From NCBI GenBank assembly GCA_963837465.1, contig CAWINB010000004.1, positions 10,853 to 74,852 on the forward strand: DNA of 64,000 nucleotides, written 5' to 3'. The notes under the pieces were generated by a model that ran no database searches, was not told the origin of the DNA, and saw only the letters and a program-made list of their open reading frames with translations. Source of the DNA: Candidatus Doudnabacteria bacterium. GTDB taxonomy: Bacteria; Patescibacteriota; Doudnabacteria; UBA920. Below are positions 1 to 50,175 of this stretch, in pieces (position 1 is the stretch's first letter; every line of letters starts with the position of its first letter). Both the position numbers and the translations under genes were made by a program.

Positions 1-226
1 CGGGGATCCGGTCGAGAAGTCCTGCCACTATCTGGCCGTCGCTGCGGGTCTCGATCACGTCGTTGTCCATGCCCACAGGTGAGGGACGGCGCTGTCGTTC
101 TGGTGATCGGGGACTGTCCAGCCCCTGTTGAACCGCTGACGACCCTGTCGAGGGGTTTCTCAAAGGCAACCCTTCACCACCCGTAAGCAACCGCGGGGCT
201 TGACCCGACCCCCGGTAGCGTTTCGG

Positions 227-1005
227 ATGGCGAGAGTTCTGGTAACCGGGTCGAGTGACGGCATCGGGCTGATGGCCGGCCGGCTGCTGCTGCAAGAGGG
301 CCACGAGGTGACGTTCCACGCCCGCAACGAGGAGCGGGCGGCCGACCTGCGCCGGGCCGTTCCGGGCGGGGGCCCTACCGTCGTCATCGGGGATCTGGCG
401 TCGCTCGAGCAGACCCGCTCGGTGGCGGAACAAGCCAACCGCATCGGCCGCCACGACGCGGTCATCCACAACGCCGGGATCGGCTTCCGCCGCCCGGCCC
501 GGGAGACCAGCGAGGACGGCCACGAGCTCACCTTCGCGGTCAACGTGCTGGCCGCCTACGTGCTCACCGCTCTGGTCGATCGGCCGGGGCGGCTGGTCTA
601 TCTCAGCTCGGGCATGCACCGAGGCGGGACGCCCAGCCTCGACGACGTCGAGTGGACCAAGCGGCGGTGGAACGGGACGCAGGCGTACTCGGACACCAAG
701 CTGTTCGACGTGGCGCTGGCCTTCGGGATGGCCCGGCGGTGGCCGGATGTGCTGAGCAACGCCGTCGAGCCGGGGTGGGTGGCCACCAAGATGGGCGGGC
801 CTGGGCGCCCCCGACGACCTGGCGGCGGCGCCGGTCACGCAGTGCTGGCTGGCCGTCGAGCGAGGACCCGGAGGCGAAGACGACCGGCGGTTACTGGTAC
901 CACCAGCGGCGGCGGGACGCCCACCCGGCTACCTCCGATCCCCGGTTCCAGGACGAGCTGATCGACCGCTGCGCGTCGCTCAGCGGGGTGCCGCTGCCCG
1001 GTTGA
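227..1005 (+). CDS. short-chain dehydrogenase/reductase (SDR); apparent frameshift around 820-870
   Basis: ORF 200..961 has the Rossmann motif VLVTGSSDGIG and catalytic YSDTK. The C-terminal continuation (GYWYHQRR...GVPLPG) is in the +1 frame (ORF 652..1005). Very high GC. Confidence 0.6.
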
Positions 1006-1014
1006 CCCGGGCGG

Positions 1015-1531
1015 CTACCAGTGGTCCCGGTGGACGACCTCGTCGAAGGGGCGGCGGTCGGGGTGGGCGATCGGCTTGAGGGGCCGGTCGGCCGGATAGC
1101 CCAGGGCCAGCATGTAGGCGCAGATCCGGTCCTCGGGTATGCCGAGAATGCGCCGGCAGGCCTCCTGGTCGCCGATGGCCGAGTGGCCCGAACCGATGCC
1201 CAGGTCGGTGGCGGCCAGCATCATCGCCATGGTCGCCTGGCCCAGGTCGTACTGGTCGATGGTGAGGTAGCGCTCCTCCTCCGGCTGGCCGGAGGGTCAT
1301 CACGACCGCGGCGGCCGCCTCGGCCAGGTGCCGGGCTCCCATCCACACCGTGGTGAGCTCCTGCAGCTGGGACCGGTCGGTCACCAGCACGAAGTCCCAC
1401 GGCTGCCGGTTGGACGCCGATGGTGATCGCCAGCCGGCTTCGAGGATCCGGTCGAGGTCGTCGGCCGCGATGGGCCGGTCCTGGTAGGTGCGGACGTTGC
1501 GGCGGGCCCTGATGGCGTCCCATGTCTCCAT
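1015..1531 (-). CDS. nitroreductase-family protein, frameshifted near 1290-1300
   Basis: N-terminal part RRNVRTYQDRPI...SPSASNRQPWDFVLV in ORF 980..1531. C-terminal part MAMMLAATDLGIGSGHSAIGDQEA...YPADRP in ORF 1015..1230 in another frame. Together they form a typical nitroreductase. Confidence 0.55.
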
Positions 1532-2517
1532 GGCCCAGGCTACGTGCTCGACATCGTCTCGGTGTTCATCTCGTGGCGTGGTGCCCGGACCGTCGAGTCC
1601 CCAGGCTTCCTCTTTTCTGATTTCATAGTCGCCGATGCGGAAAGATCAATCGGCGTATCGGCACTTCTTACGGGGTTGGGCTGCTCCTCGCGACGTGAAC
1701 GTCGCCGCTCCATCGGTTCTCGTGCCCGAGATCCCGGACCTAGGGAATTCCACGCGGAGTCGTCCGTCTCGCTCCGCTGGTTCCGAGAGACGACGCTGCA
1801 GCGGTGACCGCCGCCTCCAGGACGAAGAGTACCACCGCTGGACAGCGACCATCCCGTGCCCTACGAGAGCGACATGCCCAAGATGGACCGCGACACACGA
1901 AGACATTGACGATCCGGCACGGGCGTCGCTTCGCCGTCGTCGACGCAGAATCCGATGTGCTGCTCGGCTCGCTCGGCATTGGGCAGCTCGATGGAAGCAG
2001 TGAGGGCTGCATCCCGGAACTGGATCGCCGACCAAATCGCGGCCACGGAATCGCGAGCACCGCCTCGTTCTCGGGTGCGACTGGCTCCATCGAGTTGTCG
2101 GCTTTACGTGCTTCGAGCTCGTGACGATGCTCGGCAACGGTGTCGACGGCAACGGTCGCCGGGACGGCGGTTAGTCGAAGACAGGGATGGTGTCTCGTTA
2201 CGGCTTACCCGAGGCCCAGGACATCGTTTTCGACGTCACGCAATGGGTCTTAACCTATTGAAGTGTGATCGCGGACTGGTGATGCTGGATTCAGCTGATT
2301 CGCTCGCTGCCCCCGACCGCCGCTTACGTCGCTGCCCAAGGGTCAAGCCGCGAGTCGGAAATGTTGACGTCGGCCTTGCGACTACTGGTCTGAACTGGGG
2401 CTCTTATTGTCGCGTCAATCGCCATCGATATCACCGATCAGACCGATTGAGGGTTGGTGCCTCATTGCAGGGGACACATTCGCGATCGGCGACACTCAGA
2501 TCGATGCTTCGGCTCTG

Positions 2518-2835
2518 CTAACTTTCGTCGCCAACCGAGTCCTGATCGTCCCGTTCGAACTGGCGAGTGGCGTGCACCTCGTAGTGCATGCCATAGACCT
2601 GCCTCAGCTGGGCTATCGCCTTGAGATCAGCCTTGCTGTGGGGGCTCGCGGTTGCCTCACCCTCCTCGCCTTCGACCGGCTCAAAGGAATGCACAACTAT
2701 CTTTTCTAGAAGTTCCCCGAGTGTTATGCCCTTGAATTCCGCGAGTCCTTTCAGGACTTGCACCATATGCTTTTCCATCCGCACGCCGAGTTGTACCCGC
2801 TCGACACGCGACCCTTCAACCGTCTCGGCCATCAT
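2518..2835 (-). CDS. small ribbon-helix-helix-like DNA-binding protein (possible antitoxin/regulator)
   Basis: ORF 2518..2892. The segment MAETVEGSRVERVQLGVRMEKHMVQVLKGLAEFKGITLGELLEKIV resembles an RHH/Arc-type fold. Weak call. Confidence 0.3.
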   Translation of the reverse strand: MMAETVEGSRVERVQLGVRMEKHMVQVLKGLAEFKGITLGELLEKIVVHSFEPVEGEEGEATASPHSKADLKAIAQLRQVYGMHYEVHATRQFERDDQDSVGDES

Positions 2836-3214
2836 CCCTCCCTTATCTGTGTCCCTTGGTCCCAAGGTAACAAAACGGGAGGCATTCGTCAATCAACAGC
2901 AGCCTTCCGCTTCGCCGTCGGTCGCTAGCGGGGCTGATTCATGTTGACGAGCCCACCCAAGCAAGATCATCTGGCACTCTGATCGCATGCGTTCCTCCCG
3001 GCTGCGCAGGCGGCTCGGGACTTATCCGTCGCCGTGGACACACTAAAGCGCGGCGCGCTGCGGAGTTCGCCAAGTCGGATGTCGACTGGTACAACCCTGT
3101 CTTCGACCCGTCGTCTTCGGAAGCGGCGGCTGAACTGCTATCGCTCTGAACGAACTGATCGGGCTCGGATGGCCGTAGTACGAGGTAGTCGGAAGTCCCC
3201 CCTCCGACACGTAA

Positions 3215-3829
3215 CTAACAAGGACTTCGAGAGTCAGCGTCTTCGACAGCAGATGCATGGGTGTGGTCCACGTCGATGGCTACTCCGACCGAGTTGTCAT
3301 TTTCGATTAGTGATAACTCCCGGTCGAGGCAAGCAAGGATCCGGCGCTCTGGCCAGCCTTCCGGATCCACCGTTGCCCGAAGCCCGAGCCCATCCACGAC
3401 TGTCATCAACAGGTCGGCCGCGGCTGCCGGCTGAATTCCCTCGCGGAGTCGGCCACTATTTCGGAGGTTGTGAGCATGCTCTCGATGATGTGGTCCGCGG
3501 TAGTGCCGTCGCTGCTCTGCCCCGAGCCTCCCGCTCGTAGCCGCCGTTGCCCAGTAGTTGACCCAGATCGCCCACTCGAGGCGAACTTGCGCGTTGAGGG
3601 GAAGTGACTCACGCAATACAGCTCGTAGGTTCAGGGGATCGGCCATCGCCCGTCTCAAGAGGCGCTCATGGCACTCTTCCGTTGCGGTTGTCAGGGCGGC
3701 GACGAGTAGCGATTCCTTATCAGCAAAGTAGTGAGTCACCATGCCTGTGCTGCGACCAGCCTCTGCGGCGACATCGCGGATCGTCACCCGCTCGATTCCC
3801 TTCGAGGCGATCGGCGACACGCAGCCCAT
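3215..3829 (-). CDS. TetR-family transcriptional regulator (C-terminal half possibly frame-disturbed)
   Basis: N-terminal HTH ERVTIRDVAAEAGRSTGMVTHYFADKESLL is a classic TetR_N. The overlapping -strand ORF 3406..3612 suggests a local frame problem. Confidence 0.55.
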   Translation of the reverse strand: MGCVSPIASKGIERVTIRDVAAEAGRSTGMVTHYFADKESLLVAALTTATEECHERLLRRAMADPLNLRAVLRESLPLNAQVRLEWAIWVNYWATAATSGRLGAEQRRHYRGPHHREHAHNLRNSGRLREGIQPAAAADLLMTVVDGLGLRATVDPEGWPERRILACLDRELSLIENDNSVGVAIDVDHTHASAVEDADSRSPC

Positions 3830-4031
3830 GCCACCTCGAGGCGTTGTTGGTCACGATCGACAAGCTTAGGCACGGCACGACCGTAACCTTCCACGTGATA
3901 GAAAACAAATGTTCTATATCCGTGGCTCTGGAGCTAACTCCTGCATCTGCTGTCAGCTTCTTTATTCCTCTTGACGACGGCACCTCTGCTGTTAGGATGC
4001 ACAACAGATGTTTTGTTAGGTTCTAGGTTCG

Positions 4032-5679
4032 ATGCCGATCCGCCGCCAAGGCGGGCTGAGAGGGGGAAGGGCATGCGAGAGCCGTGAAGGCCATCACCCC
4101 GGGACGGGCGAGTTCCGGAGAGCCCTCAGCCGCCGAACGGTCCTCAAGGGACTCACATACGGCGGAGTTTTGGCTGCAGGTGGAGGAGTGCTGTCCTCCT
4201 GCGGTGCCTCACATAGCTCGCCCCCCAAGCAGGAAGCCCGAAAGCCGAGGCGAGGTGGGGTCCTTCGCGTTGGCCTTACGGGTGGAACCTCATCGGACAC
4301 CCTTGATCCCGATAATACGATCAATAACGTCGACTTTGCTCGTGCGTTCAACGTCTTCAACAGCTTGGTCGAGCTGAATCTTGACGCGCAGCCGCAGCTT
4401 TCTCTCGCTGAGGAGGTGACACCGAACAGCTCAGCCACCGCATGGACGATCCGTGTGCTACCAGACGTCACGTGGCACAACGGAAAGAGCCTCGGTGCTG
4501 ACGATGTCATCTTCACGCTCCGGCGCATTGCGAATCCGAAGAGCCCTCTCGAGGGTGCCTCGCAGATTGCAGCGCTTGACCTCAGCAACATCGAGAAGCT
4601 CGATGCCCGGACCATCCGGATCCATTGTCACACGCCGTTCTCAACCTTCGCCGAGACGCTTGCGGGCAACTTCTTCTTCGTCGTCCCAGTCGGCTTTGAC
4701 GTGAAGCATCCAGTCGGGACTGGCCCCTTCAGATTTGGCACTTTCTCGCCTGGGGTGGAGAGCAGTTTTCCGAGATTCGAGAATTATCTGGCAGCGCTCG
4801 CTACCTTATGTTGACAGCCTCCTCATCACCGAGTACGCGAATGAGACGAGCCAACTCGACGCCCTGCAGAGCGGTCAAGAGGACGTGATTCGTCTCCTAT
4901 CGCCGTCCAGTATTACTTCTGCCAGAACAAATGGAGGACAGGTAGTTGTCTCGCGTGGCGAAGGGTGGAATCCGTTCACTATGCGGGTCGATGTGCCTCC
5001 CTTTCACGACAACCGGGTTCGTGAGGCCATGCGGCTGATCGTGAATCGGGAGGAGATGTTAGGGGCGGTCTTCAGTGGCTACGGCACACTGGGCAACGAT
5101 GTCTTTACGATCTTCGACTCAACCTACGACCACTCCCTGCCGCAACGTCACCAGGACATCCCGCGGGCGAAGGCGCTTCTCAAGGCGGCCGGGGCTGAGG
5201 GCCTGCACGTGCAGCTCGTCACTTCTGCGATCGCCCAAGGCGTGGTCCAGTCAGCTCAGGTGTTCGCTCAACAGGCGCAAGCGGCAGGAGTGACGGTGTC
5301 GCTGAATAATGTGACACCGACTGCCTTTTACGGAGCGAACTACCTGAAATGGACCTTTGCGCAGGATGACTGGGTGTACGTTCCTTACCTTGTCCAGGTG
5401 TCGCAGGCGACTCTCCCATCGGCTCCGTTCAACGAGTGCCATTTCGACGACCCGCAGTACAACTCGCTCTACCAGCAGGCGCTCGCCACCACCGATGACG
5501 CCAAGCGCACGGAGTTGATCCACGAGATGCAGGTCATCGACTACACGAGCGGCGGATACATCATTCCGTACTTCCCCCCCGTGATTGATGCGCACTCTCA
5601 GAAGGTGCAAGGCATCGAGACCTCGAGGACGGGGCTGCCGCTTTCGAACTACGGATTCAAGTCGATGTGGTTTGCGTGA
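4032..5679 (+). CDS. ABC transporter substrate-binding protein, family 5 (peptide/nickel type), Tat-lipoprotein signal; frameshift near 4790-4830
   Basis: RRTVLKG twin-arginine motif plus lipobox-like LSSCGAS. The two ORFs 4032..4814 and 4735..5679 together read as one SBP_bac_5-like protein (RVGLTGGTSSDTLDP ... YVPYLVQ ... IIPYFPP). Confidence 0.6.
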
Positions 5680-5689
5680 GCCATTGAGG

Positions 5690-6600
5690 CATAGCCCGGC
5701 GGCCGAACTGAATCCTCGAGAGGAGATCGAGCTCGACGGGGCATCGCTGTCCTTGGAGGGATTGGCCGCCGTCGTCAGTGGCGAAAGGTCGGCTGTGCTT
5801 GCCCCGCGGGCAACGGTGCGGATGCGGGCCGCGAGGAACGTCCTTGTGAAAGAGATGGAACGTGGAATCGCCGTGTATGGCACGACGACGGGAGTTGCCG
5901 AGCGCAAACGCGTGTCAGTCGACGGTCCCCGCCAATCGGCCTTCAATCGAAGGCTCATCTCGGGTCATCGCGTCGCTCAGGGGCCGCCAGCGTCGCCGTT
6001 AATCGTGCGGGCGGCGATGCTTTGCCTCGCGAACAGTCTCGCAAAAGGGATGTCGGGTGTCCGCCCTGAGATCGTGGAACTCTTTCTCGAAGCTCTAGAC
6101 GACGGGTTCGTGCCGCTGGTGGGCAGCCTCGGCTCTGTCGGCGAAGGGGACATCGGGCCGCTCGCCGACCTTGCTCATGGCCTGCTCGATCGCAGCGGGC
6201 TTGTTCTTGAAGCTGGCGAGGGACTCGCGCTCATGAATAGCAACGCCTTCTCCACGGGATGGTCGGCACTTGCGCTGCTCAGAGCCGAGAGGTTGCTCGA
6301 CTCAACGGACGTGGCTGCCGCAATGGATCTTGAGGCGTTCGCTGCGAATCTCAGCCCTTGGCACGACATCGTTGTGGCCTGTCGCTCCTCGCCGGGCATC
6401 GAGACGACGATCGGAACAGTTCGCCAGCTGCTCTCCGGAAGTGTCCTTTGGGAGCCCGGCGGGCGCGCAATCTGCAGGATCCCATGACATTCCGCTGCAT
6501 TCCTCAGGTGCATGGCGCAGCCGCGAAGCCCTCACCTACGCCCGGGCGATCGTCGAGGCGGAGATCAACGCAGTCCAAGGGAATCCGGTGGTGGTGGTCG
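5690..6600 (+). pseudogene. histidine/phenylalanine ammonia-lyase-like (aromatic amino acid lyase family), multiply frameshifted and truncated after about 300 aa
   Basis: IAVYGTTTGVAE, GSLGSVGEGDIGPLADLAH (position of the MIO-forming GSVGASGDLAPLAH), RCIPQVHGAA and AIVEAEINAVQGNPVVV lie in three different frames (ORFs 5585..6487, 6358..6828, 6270..6647). The C-terminal ~200 aa of a normal HAL are absent. Confidence 0.55.
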
Positions 6601-7054
6601 AGGAGCAATATTTTTGCCCTGGACAACGGGCAAATCCTGGAAATTAATTCCGCCAAGGAAGCGCGCGCCACGCAGGACAGCAAAATTGCCAGCGGCTATG
6701 TATTTATAGACGGCCTCGGCGTAGGCGATGTCGGCGAAGTCGTCATTCGCGACAGGCAGGTTATGGCCCAGGGACGGAATGTTCGTGATTATAATGACTT
6801 TGGAACGACGCAGCGGCAAGCTGGTTAACCAGCCGGATATAATTTCGCGGGGGTTTATTTACATGAAGGGTAACGACAAACTCATTCGCGAAGTCAAGCA
6901 CGAAGTGCGCAAGCTGGTGGAAAGCAAAGGCAAGGAAAAACTGGAACCCAACTACGCCTTCCTGCGCAACATCGTCCGCGACGAAATCGGCGAATATCTC
7001 TACCAAAAAACCGAAAGGCGTCCGATGGTGCTGCCGGTGGTAATTGAGGTTTAA
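6600..7054 (+). pseudogene. 3' fragment of an RNase J-like ribonuclease gene, frameshifted
   Basis: ILEINSAKEARATQDSKIASGYVFIDGLGVGDVGEVVIRDRQVMAQ ... PDIISRGFIYMKG ... TERRPMVLPVVIEV spans ORFs 6358..6828 and 6728..7054. This matches my recollection of the C-terminal region of RNase J. Only the last ~150 aa are present, with no upstream beta-lactamase domain. Confidence 0.45.
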
Positions 7055-7065: not shown

Positions 7066-7100
7066 AACACAAAGGGGAATCCTAACAAGGATTCCCCTTT
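7066..7100 (+). terminator. hairpin AAAGGGGAATCCT-aaca-AGGATTCCCCTTT (terminator / REP-like palindrome)
   Basis: Perfect 13-bp inverted repeat directly after the RNase J fragment stop. It shares the GGGGAATCC core with the hairpin at 7757-7797. Confidence 0.6.
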
Positions 7101-7139: not shown

Positions 7140-7754
7140 ATGGGAGGAATTATGCAATATAGGGATTATAAAATTTTTAGGGCCGGCGAAATTTATCATA
7201 TTTACAATCGAGGCAACCATAAAGAACAGATATTCTTCGATGAACAGGATTATTTAAACTACATTAAACGTATAAAATTAGCACTGGGAAAAGGCTCCCT
7301 ATCCAATCTTAAGATCCGGCCATTTCCTGCAAATACTTTTAGTATCCTATGCTATTGTTTAATGCCTAACCATTTTCACTTAATGGTTAAACAAAATAGC
7401 GATATACCAATTAGCCAGCTTATCAGCAAAGTTTCCATCAGCTACGCAATGTATTTTAATAAAAGATACAATAAAGTTGGCAATATTTTTCAAGATGCCT
7501 TTAAGGCAAAGCTAATAGACAGTGATTCTTACCTGACTTATTTATCCGCCTATATTCATAACAATCCAGAAAATCCTCAAACTTACCCTTACTCAAGTTT
7601 TCCGGACCTTGCCGGAGATAGAAACGGAACAATATGCGATAAGTACTTATTATCCTTTTTTGAAAATAATAAGGAAACTTATAAAAAATTTATATTATCT
7701 TACAATAATTCTGACTATCAAAAGATTCAGCACCTGACTTTTGAAGAGGGCTAA
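7140..7754 (+). CDS. IS200/IS605-like HUH tyrosine transposase, REP-associated (RAYT)-like
   Basis: HUH motif CYCLMPNHFHLM and catalytic-Tyr region YLSAYIHNNP. About 200 aa, AT-rich relative to neighbours, flanked by related palindromes. Confidence 0.6.
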   Translation: MGGIMQYRDYKIFRAGEIYHIYNRGNHKEQIFFDEQDYLNYIKRIKLALGKGSLSNLKIRPFPANTFSILCYCLMPNHFHLMVKQNSDIPISQLISKVSISYAMYFNKRYNKVGNIFQDAFKAKLIDSDSYLTYLSAYIHNNPENPQTYPYSSFPDLAGDRNGTICDKYLLSFFENNKETYKKFILSYNNSDYQKIQHLTFEEG

Positions 7755-7756
7755 CA

Positions 7757-7797
7757 AAAAAGGATTCCCCTAGTGCTGCACTAGGGGAATCCTTTTT
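7757..7797 (+). repeat. REP-like palindrome / terminator AAGGATTCCCCTAGTGC-TGC-GCACTAGGGGAATCCTT
   Basis: Inverted repeat with A-run and T-run flanks. It shares the core GGATTCCCC/GGGGAATCC with the hairpin at 7066-7100 on the other side of the RAYT gene. Confidence 0.55.
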
Positions 7798-7839
7798 TGA
7801 GTAGGCGGATGGGGAGTTTTTTGGTATAATCTAAATACT

Positions 7840-8833: not shown

Positions 8834-10218
8834 TTATTTTATGTGGTTAATTAAAGAAGTTACTTCGTCAATTTTTTGTTTCAGCAACTCGGCGCTGTCA
8901 GCCTCCACGTTTATACGCAACAGGTTTTGCGTATTGGAAGACCTTAAATTAAATCTCCAATTGGGATAGTTAAAATCATAACCATCTATGCTGTCTATTT
9001 GAGCATCGCTGTATTTGGATTTTACCGTTTCCAAAACATCCTGATTTTTAAACTCAAAATTTATTTCCTCGGAAATATAAAATTTTTCCCTAAGCGACTT
9101 TAAAACTTCTGAAAAAAGCTTGTCAGCGGCGGATAAAATTTCCAGCATGGCCAAAAACGGCATCAGTCCATTGTCCAGATAAAAATTATCCTTAAAATAA
9201 TAATGGCCGGAAGTCTCGCTGCCAAAAACTGCTCCTTCCTGAATCATCCGCTCTTTAATAAAAGAGTGCCCGGCTTTGGTCATTACCGCGATACCACCAT
9301 TTTGCTCAATAACATAATCTATAACCCGCACCACGCGCGTATCGTGCACAATTTTGCCGCCCGGATATTTTTTTAAATAATATTGCGAGAGCAAAGCATT
9401 AATATAAGCCGGGGTAACGAACTGGCCGTTTTCGTCAAAAAAGAAACAACGGTCGCCGTCGCCGTCCCAAGCCACCCCCAAATCCGGCTTCAGTTGCTTT
9501 ATGGACTCAATGGTTTCCGGCCGGTTGGTTGGCAGCAGAGGATCCGACGGTCCTTTGGGAAAATTTCCGTCCAAATGGCCATTCAAAACTTTTATAAATT
9601 CTATTGGCAACAAGGTTTTTAATTTTTCTATGGCCGGATTAGCCATACCAAAATTGGCATTGGCCACAACCTTAAAAGCCTTAAACTTGCTAACATCAAA
9701 AGTCTTAAGTACGTGCTTATAGTAAGCGTCTTTGATGTCCTGTTTTTGAGCCGCACCTTTTTTATTGGAAATTGGAAATTGGAAATTGGAAATTACCAAA
9801 TCTCTAATCTCATATATCCCGCTGTCCCCGGAAACGGGAGCCGATTTCTCCTTCACCAATTTTAAGCCGCCATATTGTTTGGGGTTATGGCTGGCCGTGG
9901 CCATAATGCCGCCATCCAGGTCCAGATGAACAACGCCAAAATACATTTGGTCCGTAGAAATTAAACCCAAATCCAACACATTCACCCCGGCATTGTAAGC
10001 CCGCGCTCGGCCGCGTCCCTGAATTCTTTCCCGCATAAGCGCATATCATGACCCACTGCAATGTTTAATTTTCGCATCGGCCCGTCTTTGAGATCATTCA
10101 TTTGCAATAACTTTACATAAGCCTGCGCAATCTTATAAACCAACTCGGCATTAATCTGCGTAGGATAAATTCCCCGGATGTCATAGGCTTTAAAAATTGA
10201 CTGATCTATTTGTTCCAT
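8834..10218 (-). CDS. phosphomannomutase/phosphoglucomutase (alpha-D-phosphohexomutase), frameshift near 10020-10040
   Basis: N-terminus (MEQIDQSIFKAYDIRGIYP ... IAVGHDMRL) is in ORF 9982..10218. The remainder (TASHNP phosphoserine loop, GDGDR metal loop) is in ORF 8834..10036. Confidence 0.75.
9764..9797. repeat. heptanucleotide tandem repeat (GGAAATT)x4.5 inside the phosphomannomutase CDS
   Basis: attggaaattggaaattggaaattggaaatt. On the coding strand it encodes ISNFQFPISN. The unit length is not a multiple of 3. Confidence 0.8.
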
Positions 10219-10974: not shown

Positions 10975-11745
10975 TTACTGGGCCAGGGTGAAGACCACCT
11001 GGATAGTGGTGGCGACCTGGACAGGTTGCTCGTTAAGAAGCGTAGGTTGGTAAACCCACTGCTTTACCGCATCAAGAGCGGCCTGGCGCAGCAATGGGTG
11101 CCCGCTGACAACCTTGAGCTCCTGGATGCGACCATCTTCGCCGATGATGGCCGATAGCTCCACCACTCCCGAAATCCGGGTGTTCCTGGCGAGCTGCGGG
11201 TAGACGGGATCCGGATGGCGAACCAGCTTGGCGTTCTGCACACGCCCGCCGACGGGGATAATGTTGGGTCGGGGTGGTTTTGGCGCCGGGGCTTTGGGGG
11301 GTGGAGGTGCTACGTTGACGCCACCGGAGCCGTTGCCGATTAGGCAGTCCAGGCATACGCCCGTTCCGCCGGATCCAGGTCCAGGGTTGCCGGGTCCGCC
11401 GTAAACTGCGGGCGGAACTTCGGCAATTTCCGCTACCGCGATCTTGGGGATCGCGCTTGGGAAAGCAAACTTTCTGATCGCAACCCTAGGAGCGGGTTGC
11501 GGGTTAGTAGTTTGCGGGGTCGCCGTCTTGCTAGCCGTTGCCGGCTGTTGCTTGGGCAATCTTACAACCACCTCAGCCGGCTGTACCAGCGTAGGCCGGG
11601 CCAGCTTAACCTCAAGCATGGCCGATTTTCCCTTGGTCGTAAAAACCAAGAGAGTGATGATGGCGGCTACAACAGGGACGCCAATCATCAAAGATTTTAA
11701 AGTTGGAGAGAGTCCTTGTCTCTTCTCCGTAAATTGCCCGAACAT
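10975..11745 (-). CDS. TonB-family protein (Pro-rich spacer plus TonB C-terminal domain)
   Basis: N-terminal TM helix, Pro/Ala-rich linker (PPPPKAPAPKPPRP). C-terminal PVYPQLARNTRISGVVELSAIIGEDGRIQELKVVSGHPLLRQAALDAVKQWVYQP is typical of TonB_C. Markedly higher GC than flanks. Confidence 0.65.
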   Translation of the reverse strand: MFGQFTEKRQGLSPTLKSLMIGVPVVAAIITLLVFTTKGKSAMLEVKLARPTLVQPAEVVVRLPKQQPATASKTATPQTTNPQPAPRVAIRKFAFPSAIPKIAVAEIAEVPPAVYGGPGNPGPGSGGTGVCLDCLIGNGSGGVNVAPPPPKAPAPKPPRPNIIPVGGRVQNAKLVRHPDPVYPQLARNTRISGVVELSAIIGEDGRIQELKVVSGHPLLRQAALDAVKQWVYQPTLLNEQPVQVATTIQVVFTLAQ

Positions 11746-11942
11746 CTGTTTGTTACTTGTTTGCCCTCCTTAAGGGTTTGTTTTGAACGAGATGCTCACC
11801 GTTATTCCACCTTATCGCTTAACCATTAATGGTACGGGTAGATAAAGTAGTCGCAAGCGGATTGGGTATTACCCCTTTCTACCTTAGGCATACACCCGCG
11901 TTAAAACCAGGTCAAATAACTAAAGCACCCGTTATCCACCGA

Positions 11943-11963
11943 CTGTATGAAAGTTTCATACAA
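11943..11963. promoter_or_regulatory. perfect palindrome TGTATGAAA-G-TTTCATACA in the 480-bp region upstream of the zeta-toxin-like gene
   Basis: 9-bp arms, perfect. Candidate operator. Confidence 0.3.
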
Positions 11964-12233
11964 TTATAAAGGCCGATAAATCCCCACGCTACGCCACTCT
12001 TGGCTAAACCCCGCATTTGCCTTATACTACTCACTAATCCCTAACCCCTAATTCATGTCCTTCCAAATCGGCATTGTATGAACACAACCCGACATTCGGT
12101 GCTGGACGAAAGTGTTAAGTTCATTCCATTTTCCTGTATAATAAAAATGCCGCCGTGGCAAAAGGCACGGGCTATAACGGCCCGTGACCGGTATGGCAAA
12201 ATTGTTCATTCATCTCCCATTCCCGCCTAAATT

Positions 12234-12938
12234 ATGGAAACCCAAAACGACCAACAACAAATTGACGCCGCCTACCAGTACCTCAAAGAACATAAACACG
12301 AATTGATCGAACGTTTTGCAGACCCTAAAATTTATAAGCCTGATAGCGAGCCAGTAACTCTATTTATGGCTGGTTCGCCCGGTGCGGGCAAAACCGAATC
12401 TTCCAAACGATTAATTGAGCTGTTTACTGGTAATCCTCCGGTGCGCATTGATGCCGACGACATCCGCAGTATCTTTCCCAATTATACTGGCTTCAATTCT
12501 CATATTTTTCAGCGTGCCTGCACTTTAGGAGTGAACTTACTTTTTAACCATGTCATGCATAATAATATTAACGCTATTTTGGATGGGACATTTGCTTACG
12601 AACGCGCTATGGAAAATATAGAGCGGTCGCTAAATCATAAGCGTGAAGTCATTATTTACTATTTGTTTCAAGACCCTAAAGTGGCTTGGGACTTTACCCA
12701 AATTCGCGAAGCCAAGGAAGGTCGCAGAGTTTCCAAAGAGGTTTTCATCAATGCTTTCCTGCGAGCCCGCGAAAATGTAAGCCAGGCCAAAGCCCACTAT
12801 GGCGATAAAATAATGCTTAACTTAATTATCAAAGATTTTACCAAAAATTTTGAGCAAGCCTACCCCAATGTCGGTCGTCTTGATAAGTATCTGCCAACAG
12901 TGTATACTAAAGAAAAACTGGAGAAATTACTATCATGA
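12234..12938 (+). CDS. zeta-toxin-like P-loop kinase (PezT/zeta family)
   Basis: Walker A MAGSPGAGKTES in the zeta-toxin arrangement. About 234 aa, typical of the family. Confidence 0.6.
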   Translation: METQNDQQQIDAAYQYLKEHKHELIERFADPKIYKPDSEPVTLFMAGSPGAGKTESSKRLIELFTGNPPVRIDADDIRSIFPNYTGFNSHIFQRACTLGVNLLFNHVMHNNINAILDGTFAYERAMENIERSLNHKREVIIYYLFQDPKVAWDFTQIREAKEGRRVSKEVFINAFLRARENVSQAKAHYGDKIMLNLIIKDFTKNFEQAYPNVGRLDKYLPTVYTKEKLEKLLS

Positions 12939-13120
12939 TGAAAAAATTTAAAGCGGTATTTAGCCCTCACAAAGAAGAGAAAAAGAATTTTTCCTCGTTT
13001 TTTAGACATGCCTCGCCGGAAGATCAAAAACGGCTGATGGAAGACGTTGCCCGCAAGGCTAACCAAGACCAAAGGGAACTGGTTGAAGCATATCACCAAG
13101 CAAACCAAAAGTTGATGTAA
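12935..13120 (+). CDS. small ORF translationally coupled (ATGATG overlap) to the zeta-toxin-like gene; possible cognate partner
   Basis: 61-aa ORF overlapping the toxin stop by 4 nt. Charged and helical (EDQKRLMEDVARKANQDQRELVEAYHQANQKL). Confidence 0.3.
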   Translation: MMKKFKAVFSPHKEEKKNFSSFFRHASPEDQKRLMEDVARKANQDQRELVEAYHQANQKLM

Positions 13121-13466
13121 AAAGCCGGTTTTTGTAACGACCCGGTATCAATTTTCGTCTTTATATTCAGGTCTCGGCGAAGGCCTGCCCTTTTTTGGCA
13201 GAGATTGGTTTAGCTAAGTTGGTATACCGACTTATTAAAATAGCCGAAGACCAGTCCGAATACAGACCGTATGGCTGGTGTCCGTGGCGTATCTACGGAA
13301 TAGGAACAGCCAACCTCTTATTACAATGTTGGATCACTAAGTCAAAAGACAGCTTAGGACAGAAAAACCGGAGAGTCCTCCAAGGACATCGCCGGTTTTT
13401 TTTGATATTTAAAGAAAACCGGCTTTAGTGAACCGTACCCTCTTTAGTGGACAGAGGATAAAACCG

Positions 13467-14033
13467 CTAAGTTTGTAAAGATAAAAGATGATTCCGGTAA
13501 TTAACCGGGGTCATCTTTTTTAAATCCCATTGTTGTCTCTCGTTGTTGTAGTATCGCACATATTCGGTGATTAGCATAAGAAGTTCTTCAAAAGTCTTGC
13601 AGTCCTGGTAGTCTACGTCGTCTTTTAAATGGCCAAAGAACGATTCCATTGGCGCATTGTCGATGCGCCGGCCTTTACGGGACATAGATTGTACCATGCC
13701 AAGGCTTTTTACCATATTAATATACTGCGGGCTGGTGTAGTGGAACCCCTGGTCAGAATGAATAATGGTTTTGGTAAGCGGCAGTCTGGCATTGGTCTTC
13801 ATCTGCTCTAAGCTGTCCATGACCACCTCCATGCCGATATGCCTGGACAAGTTCCAGCCCACGACCTCGCCGCTGGCAATGTCCTTAATGGCTGAAAAGT
13901 AGGCTAGGCGGTGATTGAAAGGCAGATAGGTGATGTCCGTACAGAAGACTCTGTAGGGCACAGATTGGGTAAAGTTCCTGTTCAGGATATTGGCAAAACT
14001 TTTGTGCCCCCTGGTCTTTTTCATAATAGCCAT
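13467..14033 (-). pseudogene. IS3-family transposase OrfB remnant (integrase-core/rve domain only)
   Basis: DDE-region signatures HSDQGFHYTS, NAPMESFFG, YYNNERQQ. The N-terminal ~100 aa and OrfA are missing. Confidence 0.6.
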
Positions 14034-14332: not shown

Positions 14333-15928
14333 ATGCCTAAGTCCGATAATTATTTGGAGAAAACCCAACAATGGCAACCACTGTTGGATGTTTTGATTAA
14401 AAATAAAGACCTGCAATGGAAAACAACCAGTGATATTAAGCAACTGGTTAAGTATATCGATAGTGAGTATGAGGCATTTTGCCACGAAGCCGAGGATTTA
14501 AAAGAAGCCTTGGTGATTTGTTTATTCCCTACCGATGGCTATATAAACAGAGATTTTCAAAATGAAAACGTTTGGAGATTTTTGGCCAGTTTATACGTGC
14601 AAAAAATTATCACCGACTTGCATTTACCAATTTATATCAAAAGAAAAAATCAGCAAATGGTTGAAGTCCAAGGGCTGCCGGTTTATTTTGACCCAAACAG
14701 TGCTTTAAAGGAAGCTATAACAAATCCGGAAAAATTTAAAAGGTCTTTTGTTCGCTTTAAAATTCCAGACTGGAATAAGTTTGAAAAAATAAGAGACAAA
14801 GTTTACGCTGACAAACAAACTTTGGTTTTGGAGAACAAAACGGGTGAACCAGTAGTAATACAGCCTACGGATTTAGATTTGGCATTGGCGTATTTAAAAC
14901 CTTCCGTATTAAAATCAAGACACTCCGGCGAGTGGGTTTTTGGAGACATTGAGTTAGGAGCTGTTAGCGATGGGTTAGAAGGAGAAGAAACCAAAAAAAT
15001 GTTATGTGTGGCTGATTTCCTAAAATCGGAAAGAGTTATTGATAGCTATCAGGTTATAGAAAGAGAAGACACTATAATTTATAAAAATAAAAACAAGGAT
15101 ACGTCGGAGCCAATTCCTTTCGTTGGCTATGTTGCCCGCTGCAAGTTCAAACCAAGCGAAGCTTTAGAATTTATGAAGCAGCATTGGCACCCAACGCACC
15201 TAAAAATCAAACAGATTGCTGATTTATATTTAAAGCTAATTAAGGTTGTAGAGGCTTATTTTAAACAACCCGAACCAGATGTGCAGCTCAATGCTTACTA
15301 TGTTCAAATTGATACTCAAATCAAAGATTTATTGACTGGCGACCTACCGCCACGACTGCGGCTGGATTACGATAAGCCTTTTGCTGACCTACTCTCAGCC
15401 CACAAGCAAATAGAGCAGACAAAAACAACGCTGCAAAGTCACCTCAATTCTGTATATGCTTTCTATGGCGTTTTGCAGGACTTTTTAAATTTTTATAATC
15501 TAAACCCTGAATTAGCTAAGGTAGAAGGGCTGGAAGATTACCTGTCAGACTTAAATGCAAAACAGGAAGAACCAAAATTTTTGCCAAGTCCACAAGAAAC
15601 CCAACCAAGAACTGAAAGTCCAAAAAAGGCAGTTTTTATATCCACTGACTACGGTATTTATTTGAATAAGGCCACCATAAAGCCTAACTATGCCATTAAA
15701 GGAAAGCGGGCAAAATTGCTCTGGCTGCTAAAAGATGGCCGGAAACTTACAGGTAAATTTATGGCGGAAACTTTGGGTCAAACCTTACCTTTGGTAAGTA
15801 AGGAACTGGAAGCTGTAAATACAAATTTTAAAGAAATTTTAAAACTGCAAGATGACTTGGTTATTCGTGTGGACACTGGCGGGCATCGTTTGAACAAGGA
15901 ATTATTTGAAGTTAAATTTTTAGAATAA
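14333..15928 (+). CDS. hypothetical 531-aa protein with C-terminal winged-helix-like region
   Basis: Long intact ORF in a low-GC mobile island. No recognisable catalytic motif. C-terminus KRAKLLWLLKDGRKLTGKFMAETLGQTLPLVSKELEA looks HTH-like. Confidence 0.4.
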   Translation: MPKSDNYLEKTQQWQPLLDVLIKNKDLQWKTTSDIKQLVKYIDSEYEAFCHEAEDLKEALVICLFPTDGYINRDFQNENVWRFLASLYVQKIITDLHLPIYIKRKNQQMVEVQGLPVYFDPNSALKEAITNPEKFKRSFVRFKIPDWNKFEKIRDKVYADKQTLVLENKTGEPVVIQPTDLDLALAYLKPSVLKSRHSGEWVFGDIELGAVSDGLEGEETKKMLCVADFLKSERVIDSYQVIEREDTIIYKNKNKDTSEPIPFVGYVARCKFKPSEALEFMKQHWHPTHLKIKQIADLYLKLIKVVEAYFKQPEPDVQLNAYYVQIDTQIKDLLTGDLPPRLRLDYDKPFADLLSAHKQIEQTKTTLQSHLNSVYAFYGVLQDFLNFYNLNPELAKVEGLEDYLSDLNAKQEEPKFLPSPQETQPRTESPKKAVFISTDYGIYLNKATIKPNYAIKGKRAKLLWLLKDGRKLTGKFMAETLGQTLPLVSKELEAVNTNFKEILKLQDDLVIRVDTGGHRLNKELFEVKFLE

Positions 15929-26614: not shown

Positions 26615-28600
26615 CTACACGCCGGGCCAAAACATCTGGGGAACAAAGTCGTTTACTGAATTTTGACTGCTATTGTATCCGCTGTCGCGGGAATTATTAA
26701 CGCAATTCTCGTTGCTGTTGGTAATGGTGTTGTTGTTGCCGTTGACATTGTTGTTGTTATTCTGGTTGGAGCTGTTGGTGCCGGAGCTGGTATCGTTATT
26801 GGTGTTAGTATTGTTGTTACAGGAACTGGAATCGTTGTCGCAGTTACCAGTGCTTTGGGTTTGGGCGGGATTTACCGAAGAGACCGCTGGACAGTTGTTC
26901 GCGGCTTCCGCCTGGGCCTGACTTTGCGCCTGAGCCTGGGCTTGATTCTGGGCTTGATTCTGGGCATCCTGCTGGCTGACAGAACTGGTGGCAGTAGCGG
27001 TAGCAGTGGCCGTGGCTGAAGCAGTTGAACCGCCGGCACACTGAGCGTTGGCCGTTGCGGTAGCCGTAGCAGTGTCGGTAAAGGTAGCGGGGGCGGCCTG
27101 GGTGACGGTTACGGTTCCGCAGCTGGCCTGGTTTCCGGAAGAGTCACTTAAGGAAACCGGGTAGTTGCCCGCGGCATTAAAAACCACGGACAATCCACTC
27201 ACACTGCCGCCAAGAGCGCTTAAGCTATAATTTCCACTGCCCCCGCTGCCTTGGAAACTTGCGGAGCCCCCAACATCAATGTTAAGAGAAGATGTCGGCT
27301 GGCAGCTTAAGCCAACAGGAGCCGGACACTCGGCTTGCGCCTGACTTTGCGCCTGAGCCTGGGCTTGATTCTGGGCTTGATTCTGGGCATCCTGCTGGCT
27401 GACAGAACTGGTGGCAGTAGCGGTAGCAGTAGCCGTAGTTGCGGTTCCGTTCGAACAATTGGCCGTTGCGGTAGCCGTAGCAGTGGCGGTAAAGGTAGCG
27501 GGGGCGGTCTGGGTGACGGTTACGGTTCCGCAGCTGGCTGTTTGGCCTGAACTGTCAGTGGCTGTAACTGGATAGCTGCCGCTGCTATTGTAAGTGGCGG
27601 TAAGGCCGCTGATATTGGAAGCGCCGGAAGCGTTAAGAGTATAAGGGCTTTGGCCGCCGCTCACCAAAAAGCTGACGCTGCCCCCCGAACTGATATTAAG
27701 GGCGCTCGTTGGCTGGCATTGTAAAGGACTAATGACGGGGTTATTTATGTTGATTGTGACCTGCGGGGAAGTTCCCACTAAACCCTGGGAGTCGGTGGCT
27801 TGGGCGGTTAAAATATGGGTGCCGTTGCTAAAACCGGTGGAATTCCAGGAAATCGAATAAGGCGCGACACTGGCAGTGCCCAACAAAGAACTGCCATCCA
27901 GATAAAACCCGACACTGGAAATTGTGTCCCCGTTTGCCGGCGTAGCCGAAGCCGTAATGGTAACAGATGGTCCGGAAACCGAGGCTTGACTGCTTGGGGC
28001 CGTTATGGAAACTGTCGGAGGGGTGTTATTGGACTGATTTTGCCGCACCCCAATGCTGCCATTATTGGCGGTCATTTCTATTGAGTTGGCCGACACGTCC
28101 GCCGCTGACAGGTTAGAAAATTGCAATGGGATACTGGTAGCCAACGTAGTAGCGGTTAAAGTCACGGTAATAGTCCCGAGTGTTCCCTGGCCTATGGTAT
28201 TTTCATTAAACCCGACAATCAGGCAGCGGAAATCGCCCGGAGAAGGAGTGGCGCAGTCGCCGGATTTTCCCGCCGCGGTGGCGGCTGCTCCGTCGGCGTT
28301 CCAGGCAATGGAAGCCACATCGGCCGTATTGTACAGAATATCCCAGCCAAGCGCGGCCGGCTGTTCGGGAGCATTGCTGGGATTAATATAAATATTCAAA
28401 TTAACCGAAGCGCCAGGAGTGACACCGGAAGCGGAATCCATACTCAGGACAATTGAGCTGTCGGCACGGGCTAAATTAAAGGGGCCAAATAATTGCTGCA
28501 GGGTAAAAGCTGTCAAAAAACCCAATACCAAACAAGCGGTTAAATTGCGCCAGGTAGGGGCGGGAAATAAGGCAGGCTGATTTATTTGGTGGCTGTCCAT
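26615..28600 (-). CDS. secreted surface protein with N-terminal domain shared with the 821-aa protein, tandem ~140-aa repeats and Asn-rich tail
   Basis: Signal/TM region. GWDILYNTADVASIAW...GDFRCLIVGFNENTIGQG is similar to the 821-aa protein N-domain. Internal duplicated module CQPTS..LNI..GGS.SF...GG...Y.L...G ... QNQAQAQAQSQAQAE. Confidence 0.55.
   Translation of the reverse strand: MDSHQINQPALFPAPTWRNLTACLVLGFLTAFTLQQLFGPFNLARADSSIVLSMDSASGVTPGASVNLNIYINPSNAPEQPAALGWDILYNTADVASIAWNADGAAATAAGKSGDCATPSPGDFRCLIVGFNENTIGQGTLGTITVTLTATTLATSIPLQFSNLSAADVSANSIEMTANNGSIGVRQNQSNNTPPTVSITAPSSQASVSGPSVTITASATPANGDTISSVGFYLDGSSLLGTASVAPYSISWNSTGFSNGTHILTAQATDSQGLVGTSPQVTININNPVISPLQCQPTSALNISSGGSVSFLVSGGQSPYTLNASGASNISGLTATYNSSGSYPVTATDSSGQTASCGTVTVTQTAPATFTATATATATANCSNGTATTATATATATSSVSQQDAQNQAQNQAQAQAQSQAQAECPAPVGLSCQPTSSLNIDVGGSASFQGSGGSGNYSLSALGGSVSGLSVVFNAAGNYPVSLSDSSGNQASCGTVTVTQAAPATFTDTATATATANAQCAGGSTASATATATATATSSVSQQDAQNQAQNQAQAQAQSQAQAEAANNCPAVSSVNPAQTQSTGNCDNDSSSCNNNTNTNNDTSSGTNSSNQNNNNNVNGNNNTITNSNENCVNNSRDSGYNSSQNSVNDFVPQMFWPGV
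26900..27440. repeat. tandem direct repeat (~430-bp period) within ORF 26615..28600
   Basis: Near-identical ~100-bp stretches at ~26905-27003 and ~27335-27432 (gcctgggcctgactttgcgcctgagcctgggcttgattctgggcttgattctgggcatcctgctggctgac...). Confidence 0.7.
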
Positions 28601-37952: not shown

Positions 37953-38657
37953 TTACATCTCCGCTTCCGGATTTTCGGAGACTATAAGCCCGGCGATTTT
38001 TTCCGCCACCTGCTCCGGCGTGTCTATTTCCATTGGCGGTCTGCCGGAAGCGGCGTTTTGGGTCCAATCCGGCCGCGCGCCCACGGAATGCCTGCCGAAA
38101 TCCGTGGCAGTCATTTTGGGATGAAAAACGCTGACCACAATTTTGTCTTTTTCCAGCTCTGCCCGCGCCGTTAACGACAGGGCGTTAAGCGCGTACTTGG
38201 TGGAGGCGTAAGCGGCCAGCCCGGGAAAATAATTTTTGGAAACGCGGGAGCTGATATTTAAAATTATCCCCCCGCCCTGCTTTCGCATTTGCGGAATTAC
38301 CGCCTGCATACCGAGCAGCGGCCCGTAAACATTAAGCTCCATAATTTCCTTATAATTTTCCAGGTCGATTTTTTCCACCGGGCCATACATTCCCCGGCCG
38401 GCGTTGTTAATCATAACGTCCACGCGCCCGTATTTTTCCATGGTCCGGCTGACTAAATTTTTAATGTCCGCGGCTTTGCGCGTATCGGTAACTACGGCAA
38501 AAGCATTGGATATGGTTTTGGCCAGTTGGTTTATTTTATCGGCCGAACGGGCGGCCAGCACGACTTTGGCGCCAAGGTCCGACAAATGTTTGGCCGTGGA
38601 CAGGCCAATCCCTGCCGAAGCTCCGGTTATAATTATAACTTTATCTTTTATGTCCAT
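37953..38657 (-). CDS. short-chain dehydrogenase/reductase
   Basis: TGASAGIG cofactor motif and catalytic YASTK. Confidence 0.8.
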   Translation of the reverse strand: MDIKDKVIIITGASAGIGLSTAKHLSDLGAKVVLAARSADKINQLAKTISNAFAVVTDTRKAADIKNLVSRTMEKYGRVDVMINNAGRGMYGPVEKIDLENYKEIMELNVYGPLLGMQAVIPQMRKQGGGIILNISSRVSKNYFPGLAAYASTKYALNALSLTARAELEKDKIVVSVFHPKMTATDFGRHSVGARPDWTQNAASGRPPMEIDTPEQVAEKIAGLIVSENPEAEM

Positions 38658-40730: not shown

Positions 40731-40957
40731 TTATCCTAAAACCCCAATACCCTTAAACCCTTGAAAAAACTAGCTTCTTATGATAAAATTGCCTAAGTTG
40801 ACTGGGTTTGGGGTTTTTAAATCTTATTACAATCATCTACCATCTACGCCGAAACGTTCCCGGATAAAACATCGGCCAGGAAAAGGGAAATATTTTTAAA
40901 AAAGAGTTTTAAGGCACGGGAAAATATTTTGAAAAATTTATAAATATTTTCTTTTGC

Positions 40958-41032
40958 GGCGCTATCATCTAACGGTTAGGATAAGTGGTTTTCATCCACT
41001 AAATCGGGGTTCGACTCCCCGTAGCGCTACCA
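40958..41032 (+). tRNA. tRNA-Glu (anticodon TTC)
   Basis: Hand-folded cloverleaf. Acceptor GGCGCTA/TAGCGCT (one G-U). D-arm ATCT/GGAT with GG in the loop. Anticodon stem AGTGG/CCACT, loop TTTTCAT (U33, anticodon TTC, A37). T-arm CGGGG-TTCGACT-CCCCG. Discriminator A, encoded CCA. Confidence 0.8.
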
Positions 41033-41049
41033 AAGAAAATATTTATAAG

Positions 41050-41146
41050 CTAACGGTTAGGATAAGTGGTTTTTCCGCCGGAGGCGGACCCGCCTCCGGC
41101 GGGCATCCACTAAACCTGGGGTTCGATTCTCCGTACCGCTACCAAG
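41050..41146 (+). pseudogene. partial duplicate of tRNA-Glu (D-loop to 3' end) carrying a 30-nt palindromic insertion in the anticodon loop; probable att-site remnant
   Basis: TAACGGTTAGGATAAGTGG-TTTTT-[CCGCCGGAGGCGGACCCGCCTCCGGCGG]-GCAT-CCACT...GGTTCGATTCTCCGTACCGCTACCA. The 5' acceptor strand is absent. T-arm diverged from the intact copy 17 nt upstream. Confidence 0.65.
41074..41103. repeat. 30-nt GC-rich palindromic element, copy 1 (in pseudo-tRNA)
   Basis: TCCGCCGGAGGCGGACCCGCCTCCGGCGGG. 28/30 identical to copy 2 at 57030-57059. Confidence 0.8.
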
Positions 41147-42630: not shown

Positions 42631-42854
42631 AAATTTTACTCTTAAAAATTAAAGGGGCAGTCCTGGCTACCCAGCTCCACCAAAACGAGTTTGGATTTGC
42701 TGGCAGGACTGCCACCTCAATAGCAAAAGGGCAAAATAAAATCGCTTTGGGATATAGAACTGGGTAGCAAGGATATTATACCATATATAAAATTTTCAGC
42801 AATTATTTCAGTTAGTTTTTGGCAATTTCGTCCTAAAAAGAGTAAAATTTTAGC

Positions 42855-44375: not shown

Positions 44376-44462
44376 AGCCACGCGGTGGGTTGGGTGGGTC
44401 AAGTGGCTTTGCGTTTTGGTGTTAATTGCGTTCTGCGGCCCCCAAAAAATCTTCCCTGTTCC

Positions 44463-44934: not shown

Positions 44935-45015
44935 TTATACGTCTAAAACCCCAAGGAAACAAAAAAGGATTGTTAAATTAGCGCCAAACGATTTATCATC
45001 AACATAGAAAAAACT

Positions 45016-45036: not shown

Positions 45037-45072
45037 TCTTACGCGCTCAAGCGAGACGTTTTTATTCTTTTG

Positions 45073-50148: not shown

Positions 50149-50175
50149 TTGTCAGCTTTTAAAATTTTAGGCATT

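Follow-up and report, generated by a model that had tools for sequence, protein, structure and literature searches.

The 64,000-nucleotide stretch of Candidatus Doudnabacteria contig CAWINB010000004.1 analyzed here (the window) carries the gene of a 234-residue P-loop kinase of the zeta-toxin family, directly followed by a gene for a 61-residue protein. We interpret this pair as a toxin-first, toxin-antitoxin (TA)-like or defense cassette of the zeta superfamily with a new antitoxin family, a reading to which we assign a probability of about 0.6. It is favored because the pair is an autonomous two-gene unit on mobile DNA, the characterized structural relatives of the kinase are all toxins, and the partner is small, fast-evolving, helical, coupled to the kinase gene and apparently also transcribed separately. 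An earlier note on this DNA had left the choice between a reversed-order TA pair and a solo zeta-like kinase. The small open reading frame (ORF) is a co-inherited partner of the kinase gene (79/79 evaluable CPR (Candidate Phyla Radiation) loci; Mantel r = 0.70), which refutes the solo kinase; the reversed-order pair is the best-supported reading.

The pairing of the two genes was strict. In a first pass, a motif-bearing ORF of 50 to 67 amino acids lay directly 3' of the kinase gene in 70 of 77 loci, and in 51 of these 70 the two genes overlapped as ATGA. The overlap with the kinase stop described in the earlier note for the window has the same form, the kinase TGA being overlapped by the ATG of the small ORF at 12935-12938. 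A second pass with a hidden Markov model (HMM) recovered the small ORF in every remaining locus except one that ended at a contig edge, so that all evaluable loci carry it. The motif reads F-S-x-F-F ... EK..L...V.RKAN.DQR.L...Y in the window, with V.R.AN.DQR as the family form. Mismatches between close relatives in the small ORF fell mostly at the third codon position (59, 45 and 128 at the first, second and third positions, respectively). Furthermore, the identities among kinases and among small proteins co-varied to an extent that none of 1000 permutations reached. The mean identity was lower in the small protein (33%) than in the kinase (47%), indicating faster evolution of the former.

A profile search of the small protein against 1.84 billion representatives yielded 952 clusters at 50% identity. 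The best 150 of these were nearly all 42 to 73 amino acids long, and none was fused to another domain. Fusions of kinase and small protein of the Rosetta-stone type were found neither among the 96 listed best matches of one search nor among these best 150 of 952 clusters. The small proteins are labelled "hypothetical" almost everywhere in the source records, and they have been called as genes in records of Pseudomonas, Enterococcus and Shewanella. A Shine-Dalgarno-like motif preceded the small ORF in only 11 of 60 homologous loci. The small ORF is a real gene and an obligate partner of the kinase gene.

The AlphaFold2 model of the small protein showed a disordered basic N-terminus, a helix at residues 19 to 25 that covers the FSSFF segment, and a long helix at residues 28 to 60. 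No β-strand, helix-turn-helix (HTH) or DNA-binding fold was present in the model, and an antitoxin of the ribbon-helix-helix or HTH type was ruled out on the grounds that the modelled protein has only two helices and no β-strand. Across the family, only Q46 was invariant, with F23 and Y53 nearly so, and no Ser, Thr or Tyr residue was invariant. Searches of Pfam, NCBIfam, PADLOC, PHROGs, PDB sequences and Foldseek returned no match to the small protein. It is unlike epsilon, PezA and Arc1, and the comparison with antitoxin families proposed in the earlier note found no similarity to any known family. One sub-family of small ORFs (L026, L036, L037, L073, L076, L078, L086 and L087) lacks the long N-terminus, has F-F-x-L-P in place of F-S-x-F-F and carries a Cys-rich tail, e.g., CQFCDCK; the matching kinases cluster in the kinase tree.

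The kinase matched the Pfam family Zeta_toxin (PF06414) over residues 32 to 189 with 115.9 bits (cut-off of 22.3; E of 2.1e-33), which places the assignment far beyond chance and agrees with the zeta/PezT-type Walker A motif (GSPGAGKTE, residues 47 to 55, nt 12372-12398) on which the earlier note had relied. All listed kinase homologues carried PF06414, and the window kinase also matched Pfam AAA_33 (E of 1e-7). Sequence searches against solved structures matched only the P-loop region of PezT, zeta and Pnkp1 (E of 8e-4 for Pnkp1). An AlphaFold2 model was built from 52 homologues, with a predicted local distance difference test score (pLDDT) of 94.3. The top Foldseek matches of this model in the PDB were zeta (1gvn_B and 3q8x_B; template modelling (TM) score of 0.65 to 0.68) and PezT (with 2p5t; TM of 0.60 to 0.66), with E of 1e-8 to 1e-7. 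They were followed by AvrRxo1 (TM of 0.60) and then by the PFKFB kinase domain, polynucleotide kinases and PSTK.

Alignment of the kinase profile to zeta of plasmid EFD32pA with hhalign paired K53 with K46, D75 with the catalytic base D67, and D117-G-T119 with E116-G-T118, E116 being conservatively replaced by Asp in the window kinase. The D73-A-D75 segment is encoded at nt 12450-12458. K53, D75 and D117-G-T119 were invariant among 13 sequences from three phyla, ranging from CPR to Pseudomonas and Enterococcus. Because they align to the catalytic residues of zeta, the catalytic machinery (Walker A Lys, catalytic Asp and D-G-T) is intact. The residues of zeta that contact UDP-N-acetylglucosamine (UDP-GlcNAc, UNAG) are R120, E100 and T128 (PMC3062530). 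R120 and E100 correspond to A121 and N101 of the window kinase in the hhalign sequence alignment, and the position of T128 lies beyond its alignable part. The earlier note had made the catalytic residues of a UNAG kinase a test of the assignment; these are retained, whereas the two substrate contacts are not. The kinase probably binds its substrate differently from the way zeta binds UDP-GlcNAc, and nothing in the alignment supports UNAG as its substrate.

A sigma70-like promoter for the small gene was predicted inside the 3' end of the kinase gene. Its -35 box (TTGATA, 12880-12885) and -10 box (TATACT, 12903-12908) are separated by a 17-nt spacer, and the element ends 27 nt 5' of the ATG of the small ORF. 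It recurred at this position in 59 of 66 CPR loci, as opposed to at most 13 matches in any other 41-nt bin of the gene. When the DNA was aligned on the invariant Tyr224 codon, TTGA was found in 94 to 97% of the loci, the next base was C in 63% or T in 32%, and the 17-nt spacer was fixed. The base profile of the -10 box in the CPR loci was T100 A97 T81 A81 C78 T97, and the consensus across loci was TTGAC-17-TAyAnT.

Since the element overlaps conserved kinase residues (I/L/V-D and Y-T/S/N), we turned to the synonymous positions. Codon 216 ended in TT in 56 of 57 genes, against background frequencies of 0.48 for ATT, 0.22 for CTT and 0.35 for GTT. The Asp217 codon was GAC in 67%, compared to 26% elsewhere, and the Thr225 codon was ACT in 43/43, compared to 25% elsewhere; where Ser occupied position 225, its codon still ended in T. 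The element was also present in relatives from other phyla; those from genomes of 53 to 63% GC retained ATTGAC in 100% of cases and mostly had TATGAT. The bias at synonymous positions and the retention of the element in these GC-rich relatives indicate that selection acts on the DNA itself at the 3' end of the kinase gene. Most simply, the element can be read as a sigma70 promoter from which the small gene could be transcribed apart from the kinase gene, and its location would allow the small protein to be produced independently of the kinase. Antitoxin-specific promoters within the toxin gene have a precedent in mqsRA (PMC6918082).

More than 2500 kinase homologues were found. Among GTDB species genomes, at least 551 carry the kinase. 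Essentially all of these are Patescibacteria/CPR, and the labels of the small remainder seem untrustworthy. The proteins closest to the window kinase carried Doudnabacteria labels. The mean kinase identity was 47% across CPR, and identity to Proteobacteria and Firmicutes was 36 to 41%. The kinase tree was incongruent with CPR lineage labels; Moran-, Uhr- and Curtissbacteria were each spread over distant clades. A tblastn search of the window found no second copy, and the other 234-residue ORF of the window (37953-38657), considered as a paralogue, was unrelated. The defense-system HMMs of PADLOC-DB 2.0 gave nothing meaningful for the small proteins and no significant match for the kinase; CPR and Pseudomonas-type kinases had only marginal matches (mad8 with E of 6e-4 and 1e-3; DolB with E of 8e-3).

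In the window, the pair lies at the edge of a mobile island, as the earlier note had stated. It is followed by a fragment of an rve (IS3-type) transposase (13467-14033), a 531-residue ORF without a Pfam match (14333-15928), an HTH_17 excisionase-like ORF, a tyrosine integrase, a large serine recombinase (to 19780) and the housekeeping gene ychF, whose start is overlapped by the end of the recombinase gene. The conservation of the neighborhood, which the earlier note had proposed to examine, was confined to the pair itself; the most widely shared neighbor family occurred in at most 4 of 77 loci. Neighbors included Fic, restriction-modification (R-M) genes, helicases, RelA/SpoT, insertion sequence (IS) elements and integrases, and in L011 and L028 the pair was inserted directly after tRNA genes. 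We also found the pair on 47 IMG/VR contigs, with 34 to 42% kinase identity and a recognizable small-ORF motif, and between integrase genes on the Shewanella plasmid pSA70-4. Exact small proteins were present in Pseudomonas, with P. aeruginosa accounting for about 1000 contigs, and in Enterococcus on 388 contigs, as well as in Shewanella, Moritella and Spongiibacter.

Two loci illustrate the carriers. In a Pseudomonas-type locus (L092, 1-4756), the pair is directly adjacent to genes of a P2-like prophage, namely those for the portal, the large terminase and the GPO scaffold. It thereby sits at the gpQ end of the gpA-gpQ interval, in which anti-phage systems are known to accumulate (PMC9122126, PMC13586616). 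In an Enterococcus-type locus (L097, 2769-8760), the pair is surrounded by FtsK/SpoIIIE-like, DUF961 and Rep_trans genes and adjoins a split C5 DNA methylase, a context that looks like a Tn916-like conjugative element. Given the contexts of prophage, integrative and conjugative element (ICE)-like DNA and plasmid, together with the absence of a conserved neighbor gene, the pair is mobile-element cargo across at least three phyla.

The interval between the kinase gene and the divergent TonB C-terminal-domain gene (10975-11745, minus strand) spans 488 nt (11746-12233). The earlier note had called it non-coding; it holds no antitoxin-like gene, and no conserved ORF emerged from the comparison with 86 related loci. 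Its small ORFs (50, 46, 40 and 53 amino acids) had no convincing counterpart in these loci. An upstream antitoxin was rejected; the single weak match (up50 against L082, E of 5e-4) lies downstream of the pair of L082. Rfam had no match in the region with E as high as 1. In the closest homologues (L001/L002, L008 and L009), the motif GTGTATAATAA is found 35 to 45 nt before the start codon. The copy in the window lies about 90 nt 5' of the kinase start and marks the likely operon -10 region, for which no good -35 box is present. The leader between this -10 region and the kinase start folded no better than shuffled sequences (z = -0.97). Among the other CPR loci, 28 of 63 had a -10 box whose end lay 5 to 8 nt 5' of the kinase ATG, the distances peaking sharply at 6 nt; these loci include L014, L019, L022, L050, L058, L069, L071, L073, L075, L076, L078, L081 and L082. 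This box was frequently of the extended type, TGnTAnAAT. It implies a putatively leaderless kinase mRNA in these loci, unlike in the window.

The perfect palindrome that the earlier note had pointed out upstream of the kinase is present, but it does not appear to belong to the module. It occurred only in the window and in the identical Logan contig L007, was absent upstream of the kinase in all homologous loci, and is located upstream of the likely -10 at a distance of about 175 nt. Markov simulations gave an expectation of about 2.1 perfect palindromes (arms of at least 9 nt, loops of up to 6 nt) per 64 kb, and 18 were found in the window; most of these are longer and terminator-like, and the one in question is among the shortest. 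We rejected it as an operator for its lack of conservation, its distance from the promoter and its chance-level size. The palindrome may have a role at the divergent TonB-like gene, or no role at all.

Table. Coordinates of the two-gene unit and of associated sequence elements in the window.
Feature	Position	Strand	Basis or remark
Zeta-toxin-family P-loop kinase gene, 234 aa	12234..12938	+	Pfam, AlphaFold2 model, Foldseek, hhalign
Small partner gene, 61 aa	12935..13120	+	Follows kinase gene in 79/79 evaluable loci
Sigma70-like internal promoter for small ORF (predicted)	12880..12908	+	Consensus scan 10/12; codons 216-225 of kinase
GGAG, Shine-Dalgarno-like, 11 nt 5' of small ORF start	12920..12923	+	Sequence reading; weak
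Hairpin + T-run, terminator-like, closing the two-gene unit	13168..13196	+	Pattern scan
Perfect 9+1+9 palindrome TGTATGAAA-G-TTTCATACA	11944..11962	.	Absent from all homologous loci
Third half-site ATTGTATGAA	12073-12082	.	Same upstream interval as palindrome
Likely operon -10 region TGTATAATAA	12135..12144	+	Motif common to closest homologues; sequence inference

Zeta toxins are textbook type II toxins, and the closest known systems to the window pair are epsilon/zeta (Streptococcus pyogenes pSM19035) and PezA/PezT (S. pneumoniae). They share with it the Pfam family PF06414, the best fold match (TM of 0.66 to 0.68), the catalytic Lys, Asp and (D/E)-G-T, a small all-helical partner and carriage on mobile DNA. 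However, the antitoxin gene lies upstream in epsilon/zeta, and the gene order is reversed in the window. The window partner of about 60 residues is predicted to consist of a short and a long helix and shows no similarity to epsilon/PezA, which form a three-helix bundle. In addition, the window cassette lacks an omega- or PezA-type DNA-binding function and has a putative internal promoter for the partner gene, the UNAG contacts R120 and E100 (PMC3062530) appear not to be conserved in its kinase, and the identity of the kinases is only ~18%, the C-terminal half being unalignable by sequence.

A toxin-first order in this superfamily is known from AvrRxo1:Arc1 of Xanthomonas oryzae pv. oryzicola, in which a zeta-superfamily kinase gene lies 5' of a small gene amid variable, mobile flanking genes (PMC4938570). 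AvrRxo1 is a zeta-like NAD kinase that is neutralized by the downstream Arc1 antitoxin/chaperone (PMC4938570), and its fold matched that of the window kinase significantly (TMq of 0.60). In contrast to the 234 and 61 residues of the window proteins, AvrRxo1 and Arc1 have 378 to 421 and 81 to 98 residues, respectively (PMC4938570). Furthermore, the window cassette has no type III secretion context, its kinase fold is closer to zeta/PezT, and the small-ORF profile found no chain of Arc1 (AvrRxo1-ORF2) among PDB sequences, including the 4z8v complex, with E up to 10.

The mqsRA system of E. coli is likewise toxin-first, and its partner is also transcribed from promoter(s) within the toxin gene (PMC6918082), an arrangement that the window cassette would resemble according to the promoter predicted from its sequence and from synonymous-site conservation. 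The proteins, however, are unrelated, MqsR being an RNase and MqsA a zinc/HTH DNA-binding antitoxin. Polynucleotide 5'-kinases (Pnkp1, Clostridium thermocellum Pnk and T4 Pnk; AAA_33) have the P-loop and D-x-x-R in common with the window kinase (RIDADDIR), but their fold match is weaker (TMq of 0.48 to 0.53), the window kinase has zeta-like extra N- and C-terminal elements, and no phosphatase, ligase or Hen1 genes are linked to the kinase loci.

On the basis of these comparisons, we propose that gene 1 encodes an active P-loop phosphotransferase, as its residues and modelled fold suggest, and that the product of gene 2 would bind the kinase and keep it inactive as a type II-like antitoxin. By analogy with the N-terminus of epsilon, the F-S-x-F-F segment may fill the nucleotide site. 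The small protein would be supplied by two routes, translational coupling (ATGA) on the operon mRNA and a dedicated sigma70 promoter predicted within the 3'-terminal 60 nt of the kinase gene. With two routes, the cell could make the inhibitor in surplus and without making the kinase, as in mqsRA. On mobile elements, such a cassette would serve as an addiction or abortive-defense module. In a more specific form, which we put forward only tentatively, the pairs would constitute an unrecognized cross-phylum family of abortive-defense or addiction modules, with a non-UNAG zeta-fold kinase acting on a nucleotide cofactor or an RNA end, and with an antitoxin family of about 60 residues whose supply is set by a promoter in the toxin codons.

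Several observations weigh against the TA-like interpretation. Classical type II autoregulation is not evident, because the small protein lacks a DNA-binding fold and a conserved operator was not seen; epsilon likewise lacks a DNA-binding domain. A promoter of its own for the small gene would equally fit an activator, a sensor or a substrate. The known toxic mechanism of zeta is not simply transferable to the window kinase, since the R120 and E100 contacts are apparently not conserved. Finally, the conservation of the kinase is higher than is usual in toxins and it is found in at least 551 CPR species, which would also fit a beneficial enzymatic role.

The main rival interpretation is that the small protein is a non-inhibitory accessory subunit, i.e., an activator, specificity adaptor, sensor or substrate, for example in a two-component anti-phage or counter-defense system whose kinase would act only together with the small protein. 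Strict pairing, co-evolution and the predicted independent promoter are as expected of such a subunit, as are the high conservation of the kinase, the location of relatives in a prophage hotspot and an ICE-like element, and the lack of similarity of the small protein to known antitoxins. However, all characterized close structural relatives of the kinase (zeta, PezT, ng_zeta1 and AvrRxo1) are toxins restrained by small helical proteins (PMC5923241, PMC4938570), and a faster-evolving partner, a toxin-first operon and an extra promoter make up a known TA design (PMC6918082). The small-protein family also has no invariant Ser, Thr or Tyr. We consider an accessory subunit unlikely.

A vertically inherited housekeeping or metabolic kinase of CPR that has a small regulatory subunit and works, for instance, in salvage or in the metabolism of the cell envelope could account for the many Patescibacteria carriers, the high conservation with an invariant active site and the Doudnabacteria labels of the nearest relatives. 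It is improbable in view of the lack of neighborhood conservation, the proximity of the loci to IS elements, integrases, R-M, Fic and tRNA genes, the incongruent tree, and the fact that Pseudomonas, Enterococcus and Shewanella carry the same pair on prophages, an ICE-like element and a plasmid. Even less can be said for a canonical epsilon/zeta-type UDP-GlcNAc kinase system with the upstream palindrome as its operator. The zeta fold, the catalytic residues and the perfect palindrome with a third half-site upstream would suit it, but the palindrome has the conservation, position and size described above, the small protein has no predicted DNA-binding fold, the UNAG contacts are replaced and there is no epsilon/PezA homologue; we regard this system as very improbable here. 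That the small ORF is a chance ORF beside a solo kinase can practically be dismissed, since nothing remains after testing of what its shortness and lack of database annotation might have suggested, and its presence in all evaluable loci and 952 clusters, its third-position bias and the gene calls in three cultivable genera all contradict it.

Several other features of the window were observed. Its G+C content is 0.59 to 0.71 over positions 1-7000 and 0.36 to 0.47 thereafter, and the change falls at an IS200-like Y1 transposase ORF (7140-7754) that has a strong hairpin on either side (7071-7100 and 7755-7799); the genome is otherwise CPR-like, and the high-GC segment could be foreign DNA or a product of chimeric assembly. 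The phosphoglucomutase/phosphomannomutase gene (8834-10218, minus strand) is apparently split into overlapping ORFs (8834-10036 and 9982-10218), which suggests a frameshift or a pseudogene. The divergent gene beside the cassette encodes a TonB C-terminal-domain protein (Pfam E of 1e-20) with a proline-rich linker, positions 11001-12000 having a GC content of 55%; such a gene is unexpected in a presumed Patescibacteria genome. Two large minus-strand ORFs (29431-32304 and 26615-28600) contain internal repeats with a period of ~250 to 290 nt (seven copies at 30258-31904) and repeats ~400 nt apart, and probably encode repetitive surface proteins. A tRNA-Glu gene (40958-41032) is accompanied by a partial direct repeat of 30 nt at 41044-41073. 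Perfect 113-bp inverted repeats (41140-41252 and 44463-44575) surround two 506-residue ORFs, and perfect 364-bp inverted repeats (44570-44933 and 50620-50983) surround a 1655-residue ORF; the region 40938-51000 is possibly an invertible or composite mobile segment.

Among the papers searched, none linked zeta toxins with CPR/Patescibacteria and none described a pair of this kinase and small ORF. A survey of PezT in 2023 sought the partners of "orphan" toxins only upstream (PMC10532202), and the downstream partner family has remained unnamed because surveys of orphan zeta/PezT looked in that direction only (PMC10532202). If the proposed reading is true, the small proteins would constitute a new antitoxin family, the cassette would represent a second toxin-first lineage in the zeta superfamily, and a regulatory promoter would have been kept inside a coding sequence by synonymous-site selection across phyla. 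The substrate of this widespread kinase would then probably be other than UNAG. The pair is also a candidate addiction or defense module of CPR, whose genomes are reduced, and it has cultivable carriers in Pseudomonas, Enterococcus and Shewanella. In the more specific form of the reading given above, it would be among the most widespread TA or defense cassettes of CPR/Patescibacteria, in which such systems are poorly known.

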